A stretch of 33,835 bases of DNA. Origin: a virus. Lineage: Duplodnaviria; Caudoviricetes. Below are positions 6,086-33,620 of the stretch, piece by piece. Position 1 is the stretch's first letter. Every line of letters starts with the position of its first letter. Below the pieces are notes generated by a model. The model was given only the letters and a program-made list of their open reading frames with translations. It searched no databases and was not told where the DNA came from. The translations under genes were made by a program, and so were the position numbers. The stretch covers positions 1 through 33,835 of IMG/VR virus record IMGVR_UViG_3300035492_000133; one strand, given 5' to 3'.

Positions 6086-6303
6086 GCCTCTGCCTCCAGG
6101 CGCTTGATCTTGCGCTCTACGCGGCGAGACTCCAGGCGGCAGCGCTCTGCGATGCAGCGCCATAGAAAGCGCTCATCCCAGTGCTCGCGGCCACCGGGCA
6201 CGGTGCGGCGGCGGTCTTCGGCGGCAATGCAGCTGCGCAGGGCAGCGCGATAGCGCTGCTTGAGTTGCTGCAGTGAGGTGGTAGTGGCTGCTTGTTGGAT
6301 CAT
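6082..6303 (-). CDS. hypothetical basic protein (73 aa)
   Basis: SD AGGAGG, ATGA overlaps at both ends. Confidence 0.7.
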   Translation of the reverse strand: MIQQAATTTSLQQLKQRYRAALRSCIAAEDRRRTVPGGREHWDERFLWRCIAERCRLESRRVERKIKRLEAEA

Positions 6304-6554
6304 TGGATACCTCCTTGGCCAGCAGTCAGCAGCTCGCCCACGGCGAGGATCTGCAGCTGGTTCAGCAGCTGACGCTCACCGGTGGTAACGCGCTGGATCG
6401 CGCCGTTGTGCTGGTAGCGGGTGATGGCGTTGCGCAGGGCGTTGAGCGTGTCGGCCTGCGAGACAGGCGAGCTGGCGATAACAACGTCCAGCAGGCGGCT
6501 GTAGGCGTCGATCGGTTCGGCCGGGCCGAATGCGGGTTGCAGCTTGAGGGTCAT
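6300..6554 (-). CDS. hypothetical protein (84 aa, MTLKLQPAFG...)
   Basis: SD GAGG, start 10 nt after Ner-like stop. Confidence 0.7.
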   Translation of the reverse strand: MTLKLQPAFGPAEPIDAYSRLLDVVIASSPVSQADTLNALRNAITRYQHNGAIQRVTTGERQLLNQLQILAVGELLTAGQGGIQ

Positions 6555-6564
6555 GGCGGTGGCC

Positions 6565-6777
6565 TCAGGCTGCGACTGATGTGTCGGAGGACTTGAGGCC
6601 CAGGGCAACAGCAATATCGTGCGCCTGGCCGTAATGGGCTTTATCAAAGCCGTTGAGCACGCGGTAAACCGCGTTGCGTTTGAAACCGTGCTCTTCGGCC
6701 CATTTGGTGACAGTGATGCCGCGCTGCTTGAAGCGCTGTTTGACCTGTTCCGGGGTCAGTACCTTCTGGTTTGCCAT
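6565..6777 (-). CDS. Ner/Cro-like DNA-binding protein (BcepMu gp16-like)
   Basis: LTPEQVKQRFKQRGITVTKWAEEHGF...VYRVLNG...GQAHDIAVALGLK signature; first early gene, divergent from repressor. Confidence 0.9.
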   Translation of the reverse strand: MANQKVLTPEQVKQRFKQRGITVTKWAEEHGFKRNAVYRVLNGFDKAHYGQAHDIAVALGLKSSDTSVAA

Positions 6778-6826
6778 GGCAGTGGCTCCGTTGGTTGCTG
6801 AATGATGTTTGCTTTTTGTTGTGATG

Positions 6827-6855
6827 ATTATTGTGGAGTATTTACACGGTGTCAA
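6827..6855 (-). promoter_or_regulatory. early lytic sigma70 promoter
   Basis: Minus strand TTGACA (6855-6850), 17 bp, AATAAT (6832-6827). Confidence 0.8.
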
Positions 6856-6878
6856 ATGATTCTGTGGATGAAATACAC
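6832..6878. promoter_or_regulatory. two putative repressor operators TGTGGA-N5-TACAC
   Basis: TGTGGAGTATTTACAC (6832-6847) and TGTGGATGAAATACAC (6863-6878), imperfect dyads flanking the -35. Confidence 0.65.
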
Positions 6879-7262
6879 ATTCGCCTGCGCGAAGAGATTG
6901 ACCAGATTTGGTCTTCAATGGCTGAGGCTGCCCGAGATATAGGAGAGTCAAGCTCTCAAGGGCTACGTGACGTATGTGCTGGAAGAAAGCGAACCACTGC
7001 AGAATTGTTGGCGAGACTCGCATTAGAGGGTGCTGACGCCGGCTACATACTTACCGGCAAGCGAACAGAGCATGCGCCATCAAAGCAGCTGCCCTCAGAT
7101 GAGCAGCTTCTGCTCGATACTTACAGAGCCATGTCTGTGACGAGACGGAAGGCGCTGCTTGCCGACTTGCTGACAGGTGGAAAGGGACGGTCGAGTGGCG
7201 GCGTGGTTGCCAGTGGCAACAATAGCCGCGCGGCTGGAAGGGATTATCTGGAAAGGAAGTAG
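6849..7262 (+). CDS. prophage repressor (c-like HTH) with C-terminal VVASGNNSRAAGRDY motif
   Basis: HTH region, GADAGYILTGKR and LPSDEQLLLDTYR typical of Mu-like repressors; divergent from Ner; start uncertain (GTG 6849 has TGGAG SD). Confidence 0.8.
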   Translation: MSNDSVDEIHIRLREEIDQIWSSMAEAARDIGESSSQGLRDVCAGRKRTTAELLARLALEGADAGYILTGKRTEHAPSKQLPSDEQLLLDTYRAMSVTRRKALLADLLTGGKGRSSGGVVASGNNSRAAGRDYLERK

Positions 7263-7265
7263 CGC

Positions 7266-8117
7266 GTGACGGTAATAGTGGATGGCCGCCAGAACAGGGC
7301 GGCAGGTAGGGATTACGTCGAAATCAACTTTCCTGGCGCAGAGGCAGAGCTGATCACCAATGGCCAGCGCCGCCGCCTCAACAAGCTGGTAAAAGACATC
7401 AGTGCTGAAACTCAAGTTCACCCGCGGGAACTGTGGCTGGCCATGCATGACAGCGTCGGGACAAACAGTATCAGCGAAATGCGCCGTGATCAGTATCGGC
7501 AAGCTATTGAGGCGCTCCAGGGTATCCAGGCGCGAGTAGCAGACGAGGCAGAGATCCAAATGCTGATCGACCTAGTTCTTCAGGTCGTCGGCGAAAAAGG
7601 GCTGCACGCTGATATGGTGAGCTATTGTCTGACGGAGTTTGGAAAGCAGCTAAATAGACTCTCGCAGATGCAGCTGGCCCAGGTGCTGAAGTGGGTAAGC
7701 GCTGAGCCTCCGAAGCACTTGATGTTACCGGGTTCGGAAGAGATGCTTCAGGTGTGTGATGAAAGCGAAGAACTCACGGTCACCGCTTCTGGAAAAAGCA
7801 GCACAGCTGCTGGTCGCGATGTTATTGATCAACGGGAAAGCACGACGGTTAGCGCCACCGGTGAGAACTCCATAGCGGTTGGCGGTGACCTCTTCATTGG
7901 CGCGGTCGCCCCCAGTCCTAAGGGGTTCCTTGCACTGAATTTGCTGTGGGCGTTTATCTTCCTGACAGCAGCTGGATTCATTGGCCGGCAAGTCCTATCC
8001 GATGCTGCTGTGTTTGATGTGGACATCGGTTATAGCCTTGCCAGGTCTGCTCTCTGGGCCGTAATCCTGATTGCAGGCTACGGACTTATCCCGCTGTGGC
8101 GATGGGCTTACCGCTAA
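7266..8117 (+). CDS. membrane-anchored accessory protein with Flk/ORF6C-like helical region, three GxxSxAAGRD-type motifs and two C-terminal TM helices
   Basis: SD AAAGGAAG; hydrophobic segments LALNLLWAFIFLTAAGFIG and SALWAVILIAGYGLIPLW. Confidence 0.8.
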   Translation: MTVIVDGRQNRAAGRDYVEINFPGAEAELITNGQRRRLNKLVKDISAETQVHPRELWLAMHDSVGTNSISEMRRDQYRQAIEALQGIQARVADEAEIQMLIDLVLQVVGEKGLHADMVSYCLTEFGKQLNRLSQMQLAQVLKWVSAEPPKHLMLPGSEEMLQVCDESEELTVTASGKSSTAAGRDVIDQRESTTVSATGENSIAVGGDLFIGAVAPSPKGFLALNLLWAFIFLTAAGFIGRQVLSDAAVFDVDIGYSLARSALWAVILIAGYGLIPLWRWAYR

Positions 8118-8131
8118 TTCTTGGAGGATGT

Positions 8132-8320
8132 ATGAAAGGACTGGATATCGTCGGCCTTGCTCTCATTATGCTCAGCCTTGTCCTAGTGTTCGCGTTTGGC
8201 GTCACTCAGAGCAACCCAGAAATGGGCGGATATAGCTTGAATGATCTTGGGCCGATCTGGCCTGGGGTGATCGGTTTGGTTCTGGTGGTTGTGGCGAGGT
8301 TTACGGGCCGCAAGGCTTAG
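8132..8320 (+). CDS. small 2-TM membrane protein (62 aa)
   Basis: SD GGAGG, two hydrophobic helices, basic C-terminus. Confidence 0.75.
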   Translation: MKGLDIVGLALIMLSLVLVFAFGVTQSNPEMGGYSLNDLGPIWPGVIGLVLVVVARFTGRKA

Positions 8321-8399
8321 GACCGGTGCTACTTATTGATTAAGCGTTCCAGAGCCCGAAGCGGCCAGGGAAGTGATTGGTAATCAAGGAGAGGCCAAG

Positions 8400-9083
8400 A
8401 TGGCTGAAAGCAAAGGGAAGTCTTTAAGAGTACTCGCTGCGGCAACAACCGCCGCTCTGGTTCTGTCGGGCTGCACGAGCGTCAAATACAACGGCGGCGG
8501 CAGTCGAGAGTACTACATCAACGAACCACTCCCCGGTCAGGTGGCGACCCGTTCCATTGGCGATGAGATGCTCACCAAGGGCAAGGTGGTTGAGGAGTAT
8601 GTGCTGGCCGTCAGACAGCCGATTCAGGGAGCGCTGTATGCCGTTCCTGCCGGAGATTATGTTCAGGTGGGCTCGGATGAAAGGAACTACTTTTACTCGC
8701 CCATTGGTGTGACCAAAAGCCCGATTGCAGATCCCATTACCGCTCTGGCAGTTGGGCGGACACCCGGTTCCGAGCTGTGTGCGGTCAGCGTCTTTGGTAC
8801 CAGTTCCTGCTACGCAGGGAACTTCGCTCGGACAAAACGCACGCGCGCGGGGCAGACGGGGTTCCATCAAACCCTGCTCTACAACGGCCGCGTAGGCAAC
8901 AAGATCAATATCGGCTACCGCGAATTCAACAACGACATGGCTCGCCCCGCCTTCAACAACGACGTGGAGTACGATCTGTCAGCCTCTGCGGTGATTGGTT
9001 ACAAGGGGGCATCCATCGAGATCATCAAGGCCGATAACAGCAGCATCACTTACCGGGTGCTTCGCAGCTTCTCGGGGCAGTAG
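8400..9083 (+). CDS. accessory lipoprotein
   Basis: SD AAGGAG; signal peptide with lipobox LSGC; beta-rich body. Confidence 0.8.
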   Translation: MAESKGKSLRVLAAATTAALVLSGCTSVKYNGGGSREYYINEPLPGQVATRSIGDEMLTKGKVVEEYVLAVRQPIQGALYAVPAGDYVQVGSDERNYFYSPIGVTKSPIADPITALAVGRTPGSELCAVSVFGTSSCYAGNFARTKRTRAGQTGFHQTLLYNGRVGNKINIGYREFNNDMARPAFNNDVEYDLSASAVIGYKGASIEIIKADNSSITYRVLRSFSGQ

Positions 9084-9115
9084 ATGCGGCTTTTGCTGAG
9101 CCAGTCGCTGTTTGT

Positions 9116-9159
9116 TTTGCCCCTGTTCAAAAGACTCTAACCGCTCGACCTGACACCCT
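9116..9159 (+). promoter_or_regulatory. putative activator-dependent late promoter (lysis operon)
   Basis: TTTG-CCCCTGTT-CAAA, 22 bp, CACCCT. Confidence 0.7.
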
Positions 9160-32005: not shown

Positions 32006-32122
32006 ATGTTGAAAGAGCTACGTTGTGGTCGTTGTTCACGGCTCCTGGCCAAGATCGACCAAGGCAGCATCATCGAGATCAAGTGCCCCCGCTGCGGGAC
32101 ACTCAACCAAAGAAGGCCATGA
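32006..32122 (+). CDS. Com-like zinc-ribbon translational regulator (38 aa, not in ORF track)
   Basis: MLKELRCGRCSRLLAKIDQGSIIEIKCPRCGTLNQRRP; two CxxC; upstream of DNA methylase. Confidence 0.8.
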   Translation: MLKELRCGRCSRLLAKIDQGSIIEIKCPRCGTLNQRRP

Positions 32123-32162
32123 GCCTCAAAGCGAGCGCCCCGAGCGCCGACTGGAGGTTTAC

Positions 32163-32954
32163 ATGGCACAGCCCATCATCCCCTGGATCGGCGGCAAGCG
32201 ACGTCTTGCCGACCGCATCTTCCCGCTGTTTCCCCGTCACAGCTGCTACGTCGAGCCGTTCGCCGGAGGTGCAGCACTGTACTTCCTCCGATCGGTGCCG
32301 GCCGACGTCGAGGTGCTGAACGACGTCAACGGCGACCTGGTCAACCTGTACCGCGTCGTCCAGGTGCATCTGGAGGAGTTCGTCAGGCAGTTCAAGTGGG
32401 CACTCAGCAGCCGCCAAGTGTTCAAGTGGCTCCAGGACACCAACCCGGCAACCCTCACGGACATCCAGCGCGCCGCCCGGTTTTACTACCTTCAGCAGAG
32501 CGCCTTTGGCGGTCGCGTCGATGGCCAGAGCTACGGCACCGCCACCACAACCCCACCGGGCCTGAACCTGCTGCGGCTGGAGGAGAGCCTGTCGGCCGCG
32601 CACCTACGGCTCAGCAACACCTACATCGAGCACCTGAGCTGGCAGGACTGCATGCGCAAGTACGACCGGGAGCACACCTTCTTCTACTGCGACCCACCGT
32701 ACTGGGAGACCGAAGGGTACGGCGTGCCATTCGGTTTCGAGCAATACGAAGAGATGGCTGCGATGCTGAAGGCACTCAAAGGCAAAGCCATCATCAGCCT
32801 CAACGACCATCCCGACATCCGCCGGTGCTTCGCCGACTTCCACATCGAAGCGACCGACATCAAGTACACAGTCGGCGGAGGCAAAGGCAGCAACGCCTCG
32901 GAGGTGCTGATCTTCAGCTGGGATATCAGCGCCGAGCCGGCTGGGCTATTCTGA
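32163..32954 (+). CDS. DNA adenine methyltransferase (D12/Dam-like class)
   Basis: PWIGGK, YVEPFAGG, NDVNGDLVN, DPPY; SD GGAGG. Confidence 0.93.
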   Translation: MAQPIIPWIGGKRRLADRIFPLFPRHSCYVEPFAGGAALYFLRSVPADVEVLNDVNGDLVNLYRVVQVHLEEFVRQFKWALSSRQVFKWLQDTNPATLTDIQRAARFYYLQQSAFGGRVDGQSYGTATTTPPGLNLLRLEESLSAAHLRLSNTYIEHLSWQDCMRKYDREHTFFYCDPPYWETEGYGVPFGFEQYEEMAAMLKALKGKAIISLNDHPDIRRCFADFHIEATDIKYTVGGGKGSNASEVLIFSWDISAEPAGLF

Positions 32955-32981: not shown

Positions 32982-33620
32982 ATGGCAATCAACAAGGACG
33001 ACTACAAACCGACCGCACTGGAGCAGGTTGCAAGCCATCCGGCAGTCACTGCTGCCGCGACAGCGGTGGCGGCCGGGGCATCAGTTGGAGCTGCCATGTT
33101 CCTCCCGATCCTCACAGGCACACTCGCAGCGCGTCGTCACGAGGAGCGTCTTGCCAAGTTCATCAATGACGTCAGCGATGATCTGAGAGGACTGGAGCAA
33201 AGGCTTGATGAGATGAGTGATGCCCAGTACCAGCTTGTCGGGGACGCTGTCGCGTGTGCCTTTCAAACCATCAATCAAGAGAAGCTTGATTACCTTCGGC
33301 ATGTCATCAGAAACAGCCTGAGCGTGGATATCGATCCATTCAATTATGCCCACGTGGCTCGTGTCATCCGGGATGTATCAGCGGATGAGGCTGGTTTGCT
33401 CATGGAGACTAGTGCCAATCCAAAGGTATTAACTCTGGATAACCATAGATTGAAGCGGTTGTTTACCCTTAACCCTAGAGGGCGCAACCAACCCGTTTTG
33501 AGAGGACTGATATCGCTGGGGCTGGTAGAGAAACACGCCGATGGCGATCCCAATCTTCGAGGGGATGTGTACGCCTGGACTCCTATTGCTGAAGTTGTGC
33601 ACCAGCTGCTTTCGGCGTGA
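32982..33620 (+). CDS. accessory protein, possibly Abi-alpha/DUF4393-like
   Basis: 212-aa ORF with SD GGAGG; EKLDYL...NSL, DVSADEAGLL, LISLGLV...WTPIA pattern. Confidence 0.6.
   Translation: MAINKDDYKPTALEQVASHPAVTAAATAVAAGASVGAAMFLPILTGTLAARRHEERLAKFINDVSDDLRGLEQRLDEMSDAQYQLVGDAVACAFQTINQEKLDYLRHVIRNSLSVDIDPFNYAHVARVIRDVSADEAGLLMETSANPKVLTLDNHRLKRLFTLNPRGRNQPVLRGLISLGLVEKHADGDPNLRGDVYAWTPIAEVVHQLLSA

Follow-up and report, generated by a model that had tools for sequence, protein, structure and literature searches.

A B3-like prophage repressor and its membrane-anchored neighbor carry a matching motif that co-varies across phages in an arrangement like that of bacterial amyloid signaling

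How a prophage leaves lysogeny when its repressor has no RecA-cleavable domain has long been an open question. In layout, the closest described systems to the locus reported here are the BASS pairs of bacterial amyloid signaling, in which the C-terminus of an effector and the N-terminus of the adjacently encoded sensor carry a motif of ~25 residues (10.1101/2020.01.06.895854). According to the accessible part of that source, BASS motifs are rich in G, N, Q, V, and I, those of BASS1 and 6 occur as pseudorepeats, and in HET-s and BASS1/6 it is the effector that bears multiple motif copies. The adjacent bab and agp genes of E. coli (BASS11) likewise encode a C-terminal effector motif and an N-terminal sensor motif (10.1101/2024.11.07.622273, available in part). 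Qtip (10.1101/2019.12.16.877910) and the TF-smORF modules (PMC10432266) are transcriptionally induced small proteins that bring about SOS-independent, phage-specific inactivation or sequestration of a repressor; Qtip binds the N-terminal DNA-binding part of its target, and the portions of the two sources at hand describe no shared motif. Among Beetrevirus-type phages, B3 ORF18/ORF20 and Ps59 gp17/gp18 are annotated merely as a repressor and a hypothetical protein, and for Fc02, from the B3/Ps59 group, a plasmid that carries the cloned repressor and no partner gives immunity (PMC9936078, in its available part).

The window (the whole stretch of DNA that was analyzed, a record of 33,835 bases) encodes a Mu-type transposase, a transposition ATPase, a holin, an endolysin, a terminase, a portal, head proteins, and siphovirus tail proteins, and its gene order is that of Pseudomonas phage B3. 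The Mu-type transposase and AAA transposition protein lie in a divergent early operon, with holin, endolysin, terminase, and siphovirus tail genes in the other arm, as expected of a B3-like transposable phage. The immunity region under study comprises a ner-like gene, the repressor gene, and a gene directly behind the latter whose product we call the partner. These and the associated features are as follows.

6565..6780, minus strand: ner/cro-like HTH gene, first in the divergent early operon (phrog_925 HTH DNA-binding protein, E 6.7e-30)
6827..6855, minus strand: candidate σ70-like promoter facing ner (lytic pE-type) and overlapping the repressor start; 11/12 consensus bases, a consensus match only, with 1 site found vs. 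1.2 expected in shuffles
6849..7262, plus strand: XRE-family immunity repressor, 137 aa (from the Pfam matches of homologues, a family profile, and an AF2 model)
7203..7247, plus strand: motif copy R at the repressor C-terminus, VVASGNNSRAAGRDY
7266..8117, plus strand: partner gene, 283 aa, 3 nt past the repressor stop
7272..7316, plus strand: motif copy N at the partner N-terminus (residue 3), VIVDGRQNRAAGRDY
7353..7715, plus strand: cytoplasmic core of two predicted three-helix units (residues 30–150), weakly antirepressor/ORF6C-like (AF2 pLDDT 90–97)
7779..7823, plus strand: internal copy I1 in the partner (residue 172), VTASGKSSTAAGRDV, lineage-specific and BASS6-like
7848..7892, plus strand: internal copy I2 in the partner (residue 195), VSATGENSIAVGGDL, lineage-specific and BASS6-like
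7926..8102, plus strand: two predicted transmembrane helices, both ends predicted inside (hydropathy; AF2 helices 218–246 and 256–282)
8132..8320, plus strand: hydrophobic accessory ORF, 62 aa, without the motif
8400..9083, plus strand: lipoprotein-like accessory gene (phrog_1353), last before the holin, without the motif

The ner/cro-like gene occupies the position of B3 ORF17. Contigs from other studies replaced parts of this region: one (X3) carried 3,398 other bases in place of the whole immunity and accessory block (6572–9107), and another (X10) replaced 6428–6708, so we regard the immunity region as an exchangeable cassette. The lipoprotein-like gene was present as two alleles, 55 differences apart over 8379–8790 within one run, and was much more variable than the repressor and partner genes. 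At the right end of the window, a DNA methyltransferase gene (phrog_56; 32025–32954) is followed by an ORF without a PHROG match (32982–33620). Contigs of an RNA run (X11) covered 7027–7571, 7557–7840, and 8024–8267; these reveal neither the strand nor a single transcript and may be DNA.

A Pfam search with the window repressor itself returned no match. Its homologues carry the XRE HTH families PF01381, PF13560, and PF12844, the family profile matches the 434 repressor, P22 c2, and DdrO, and the window repressor matched the B3 and Ps59 repressors by tblastn. The gene is divergent from ner/cro within the immunity region, as is typical of an XRE/cI-like repressor. In the AF2 model, a five-helix HTH is followed by a two-helix domain and a disordered tail with pLDDT under 50. 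No S24 autoprotease domain was found; the two helices and tail that follow the HTH had no Pfam match, and a 434-type protein of 137 aa has no room for one, which bears out the description of this repressor in the earlier note. The tail motif was retained in homologues with a diverged HTH, and other homologues had different tails rich in Gly, Asn, Gln, and Val or had no tail. Repressor tails of many further β-type classes, mostly followed by a Lys/Arg-rich end, were seen in the set P0040–P0175. At one locus (L222), the motif ends a protein with a ner-like rather than a cI-like HTH and the next gene encodes a zinc-finger membrane partner.

The earlier note had claimed four 15-residue copies of one motif, and all four were confirmed, in frame, at the positions listed above, with R and N separated by 69 nt and I1 and I2 spaced 23 residues apart. 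When the 47,385 stop-free 15-mers in the six frames of the window were scored with R, the four copies ranked as the top four, with BLOSUM62 scores of 75, 51, 46, and 33 against 27 for the next best 15-mer, and chance was rejected as their source. R and N share 9 of 15 residues, 4 of them with the same codon; the corresponding values were 10 and 3 for R and I1, 8 and 2 for R and I2, and 7 and 0 for I1 and I2. This codon comparison upholds the suggestion that the copies are under selection at the protein level. Contigs from other studies span the motif region, one (X3) with 9 differences over 6300–9139 and one (X5) with 1 difference over 6541–8402, so an assembly artifact was ruled out. A contig from an isolate showed 10 differences in 7150–8120, none of them within R or N. 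In I1, a Ser is turned by two neighboring changes into the Asn found at this position in R and I2.

The four copies are not equal, since N and R scored 37 and 36 bits on a family motif profile built without this locus, whereas I2 (1.8 bits) and I1 (−3.2 bits) scored at background (best unrelated peptide, −2.7 bits). No copies were found at the place of I1 and I2 in the 24 other aligned homologous partners. R itself differs from the family in having Ala at motif position 3 and Ser at position 8; of 100 other distinct tails, a single one had these residues, the same tail for both. Because Ala3 and Ser8 are common to R, I1, and I2 and are not found in N, R combines features of N with those of the internal copies, an indication that I1 and I2 may be working partners of R. 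A lone 10-residue match of I2 to PF05658 (E 0.47) raised the possibility of a YadA-type adhesin head repeat, which we rejected; the motif copies are scattered and predicted to be cytoplasmic, vs. the many tandem 14-residue repeats of a secreted trimeric autotransporter.

Co-occurrence of the motif in other repressor/neighbor pairs was examined at loci fetched for the similarity of their repressors; of 155 such loci, 153 gave a repressor match, and repressors of 90–200 aa were kept and clustered at 80%, leaving 106, the window’s own included. Tails were flagged by a composition rule applied to the repressor alone, a loose rule that also flags several plainly helical ends, and a pair was called when a downstream N-terminus within 1.3 kb scored at least 38. 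A matching downstream N-terminus was present for 50 of 72 tail-bearing repressors vs. 1 of 34 tail-less ones in this non-redundant set, using a score threshold and class patterns that were chosen after a first look at the loci. When flagged tails were compared with the downstream regions of unflagged loci as a control, a score of 38 was reached in only 14 of 2,448 comparisons. For the other 22 flagged tails, a partner was not seen within 1.3 kb, in some cases because the tail was called falsely or a start was missed.

Thirty-eight of the 50 pairs belonged to the window’s type (class A) and 12 to other classes. Class A tails scored 52.5 with their own partner, 47.4 with other class A partners, and 25.2 with non-A partners; non-A tails scored 49.5 with their own partner, 30.5 with other non-A partners, and 23.0 with class A partners. 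Class matching was significant in each set (permutation p<1e-5, a value inflated by relatedness). On trees built without the motifs, there were four motif-class changes among 23 partner cores, two of them forced by starred branches, and seven changes for four classes (minimum three) on a quick tree of 43 repressors. The match between tail and partner was also retained across an inserted gene at three loci (L033, +685 nt; L053, +1178; L133, +502). At fourfold sites of identical residues in 47 pairs, the third base was the same in 73 of 219 (33%) vs. 26–29% by chance, and by this comparison, the synonymous sites of tail and partner are near saturation. Intergenic gaps varied, both in and out of frame, and a conserved read-through fusion was ruled out.

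A motif-first scan, blind to the carrier protein, returned 120 loci, 80 of them with flanks (53 distinct motif sets, many being near-copies). The motif was at a protein C-terminus in 80 of 80, 73 of those proteins match an HTH profile, and a second copy starts the next gene in 79. These loci include phage B3-type and E. coli prophages, and the motif pair is carried by B3 ORF18/ORF20 and Ps59 gp17/gp18. One variant of the pair was present in 514 of 5,426 complete E. coli genomes, in a prophage with a replication endonuclease and an integrase, which we take to be P2-like. Lack of co-conservation had been named beforehand as grounds for refutation; instead, in these comparisons, the motif is co-conserved in repressor and partner and co-varies between the two proteins. 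We consider it likely, from this pattern, that repressor and partner pair physically through their motifs.

Residues 1–149 of the window partner match phrog_5825 (E 7.7e-34). The loop between its two predicted transmembrane helices is short (~15 residues) and acidic and its C-terminus is basic, and for these reasons, all three partner motif copies are probably cytoplasmic. Among 45 complete non-redundant partners, 28 have the helical core and 17 do not, two CxxC motifs are found in eight, and a hydrophobic segment is present in 38; most partners end in a single C-terminal anchor, and four (L031, L041, L086, and L128) appear soluble. In these sequences, partner bodies are interchangeable between loci and mostly membrane-anchored. 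At two loci (L017 and L020), two successive genes, +6 and +484 nt past the repressor stop, one encoding the zinc-finger membrane type and the other a further protein, each start with a class A motif. Very short or oddly started partner ORFs at L034 (+3 nt), L039 (about +75 nt), and L043 (+4 nt) are hardly more than the motif and may be minimal partners or broken genes. In four partners (L003, L021, L027, and L070; residues 25–60) and in Ps59 gp18, a second β-type stretch, GNINFGTQ-like, follows the N-terminal motif, and no repressor copy of it was seen.

Weak matches to antirepressor PHROGs (E 7.5e-5 to 6e-3) were obtained within the core family, with phrog_245 matched by 5 of 25 members (best E 7.5e-5), phrog_2127 by three, and phrog_463 by two; the window partner itself had no antirepressor PHROG match. 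One of the 25 matched PF10552 (ORF6C) at E 0.017 and 15.5 bits vs. a cut-off of 22, and a PF10552 search in 151 genomes found none. Foldseek against BFVD gave weak rows for an ORF6C protein (E 0.023) and RecT, none at E<=0.001, and Foldseek against the PDB likewise gave no match at that level. The top VIA-align match of residues 30–94 was chain 1A of the Sak-Stl complex 8qe9 (Z 8.5, rmsd 1.9, 61 aligned), followed by NinB (7.6) and the Redβ C-terminal domain (6.6 and 6.5); these scores fall within the chance range for helical bundles and give a lead to a peptide-binding domain only. The two halves of the core align weakly with each other (hhalign probability 6%, E 0.006). An ESM Atlas search gave no usable match, a full-length homologue search with the partner returned only the partner itself, tblastn of the window partner and of L024 against named phages found nothing, and neither did single-protein locus searches. 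Two repressor matches of 267–271 aa (L139 and L145) are one-chain fusions of an HTH, a motif-like stretch, and the core (phrog_17822 type); they are homologous to the split pair L086, with 36% identity to its soluble partner (E 1e-29).

Set beside BASS1–10 and Bab/Agp, as far as the accessible sources describe these, the locus has the same layout, a Gly/Asn/Val-rich motif at the C-terminus of one protein and at the N-terminus of the adjacent product, and it shares with them several classes matched within pairs, pseudorepeats, and fused all-in-one forms. It differs in that the motif is ~15–18 residues long rather than the reported ~25 and in its carriers, a DNA-binding repressor with the C-terminal copy and a small membrane protein with the N-terminal one; Pfam and PADLOC found no Bell/HeLo, NLR, TPR-GreA-PIN, or other death domain in repressor or partner. 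It would thus work like a BASS pair in layout, and we do not file it as one because the carriers are not Bell/NLR proteins. By eye and text search, R, I1, and I2 resemble peptides of training cluster C09 in supplement 1 of PMC8086366, a cluster we take to be BASS6 because its fold share (18/175) fits Table 1 in the part of that source available, and the AxGxxSxAxGGD-type BASS pattern given in the earlier note does exist there. The family core NRVAG and the string GNNIQ were absent from the BASS training sequences examined in that supplement. AF2 predicted the motif regions of either monomer at low confidence (about 45–55) and with no strands, and was uninformative in this respect.

The partner core is weakly like the Ant/ORF6C helical domains (PF10552; phrog_245, 2127, and 463) in profile and fold, but it falls below the cut-off, is membrane-anchored, and is lacking in roughly one partner in three. 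None of the DNA-binding domains KilA-N, Bro-N, and AntA was found. The predicted output is that of Qtip and the TF-smORF modules as far as these are described in the available text, whereas here the partner gene immediately follows that of the repressor, and the partner motif mirrors the repressor tail. B3 and Ps59 share the immunity gene order and the motif pair with the window and differ from it in the body of the partner. In Fc02, the repressor has no tail and the neighbor has no motif, and gene e4 of this phage was rejected as a partner because it lacks the motif. Our literature search, which was thin on subscription papers, found no description of a repressor-partner motif pair, a negative limited by the supplements of the BASS preprints, which could list such carriers.

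We tentatively favor, at somewhat below even chances, a signal-gated antirepressor, in which like-with-like, probably cross-β, capture of the repressor tail would lead to induction without RecA cleavage. Both proteins would be made in the lysogen, and a cytoplasmic cue would cluster the partner via its helical core or zinc finger, with the membrane anchor assisting. Clustered partner motifs (three per chain here) would nucleate a β-stack that recruits repressor tails, the repressor would leave its operators, and the ner/transposase operon would be derepressed and the prophage induced. We prefer an antirepressor role because the core weakly matches antirepressor families, because the HTH and core fusions put the core in control of the HTH, and because the tail-less Fc02 repressor, in the available account, represses alone; BASS-like assembly is preferred because the geometry is that of Bab/Agp, as described in part, and because of the BASS6-like sequence and pseudorepeats. 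Against this role, an antirepressor made constitutively together with its repressor would have to be tightly gated, the core matches are weak, and 17 of 45 partners lack the core. Further points against the favored reading are that the motif is shorter than those of BASS, that NRVAG was not among the BASS training sequences examined, that the AF2 monomers show no strands at the low-confidence motif regions, and that 22 of the 72 flagged tails were unpaired. The envelope signal proposed in the earlier note fared less well and is not favored, since the loop is only ~15 residues, the variable domains are cytoplasmic, and some partners are soluble or fused. A further-reaching version, a widespread, self-propagating cross-β switch between lysis and lysogeny in which exchangeable sensors nucleate the assembly that consumes the repressor and give all-or-none, phage-specific, SOS-independent induction of transposable and P2-type prophages, the motif classes acting as private channels among co-resident prophages, is conceivable and, in our judgment, rather doubtful.

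The partner could instead be a co-repressor or stabilizer that tethers, oligomerizes, or shields the repressor, its loss or cleavage causing induction. All of the co-variation evidence fits this equally, a gene co-expressed behind that of the repressor would be a fitting arrangement for a helper, pairs with a membrane-held anti-activator or co-regulator are common, and the permanent union of HTH and core in the fusions is compatible with a presumably working regulator. However, the tail-less Fc02 repressor confers immunity without a partner (PMC9936078, available in part), the core is antirepressor-like by its weak matches, and the two different motif-bearing partners at L017 and L020 look more like several inputs than a scaffold. 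On balance, we judge a co-repressor unlikely.

An abortive infection system, in which an incoming phage disturbs the repressor as a guarded sensor and the motif is templated onto the partner, with cell death or exclusion of the phage brought about by the membrane helices of the latter, has a still smaller chance of being correct. The known motif pairs all control cell death in the accessible parts of their sources (10.1101/2020.01.06.895854, 10.1101/2024.11.07.622273), variable accessory genes occupy the slot behind the repressor, which lysogens transcribe (PMC9936078, available in part), a hydrophobic segment is present in 38 of the 45 partners, and the I1 and I2 copies on the partner parallel the reported effector-side multiples of HET-s and BASS1/6. 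Yet PADLOC gave no match for 8 of 8 proteins tested, there is no Bell/HeLo or NLR domain, many partners have one terminal anchor, several are soluble, soluble HTH fusions exist, and very short partner ORFs occur (L034 and L039).

The motif may also be a tag for a third factor (a host protease, a chaperone, or another phage’s antirepressor), in which case the partner would be a decoy or an adaptor and like would not assemble with like. Turnover of the Mu repressor is governed by its C-terminal tail, the motif here is terminal and predicted to be disordered, and a decoy must resemble the tail, which would explain the matching. We nevertheless regard such a tag as improbable: a fixed host factor would not permit several unrelated motif classes, the copy is at the C-terminus in one protein and at the N-terminus or inside in the other, and a Gly/Asn/Val β-arch-like pattern is found in each class. 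Finally, the copies could be without protein function, left behind by DNA duplication or by recombination of cassettes where the two genes meet. This could account for part of the class co-variation, as R and N are close enough for a single recombination to swap both, and for the slight excess of shared third bases, but it is largely refuted and neutral duplication is rejected, since residues are kept while codons are scrambled, the motif outlasts both HTH and partner body, and matching persists over insertions of 0.5–1.2 kb.

A matched, swappable tag on repressors and their small partners, of which we favor the signal-gated antirepressor reading, is a candidate, testable input route to induction. 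If the tag is amyloid, bacterial amyloid signaling would reach beyond cell death to the control of transcription factors; if it is not, the locus would still represent an undescribed repressor-partner system.
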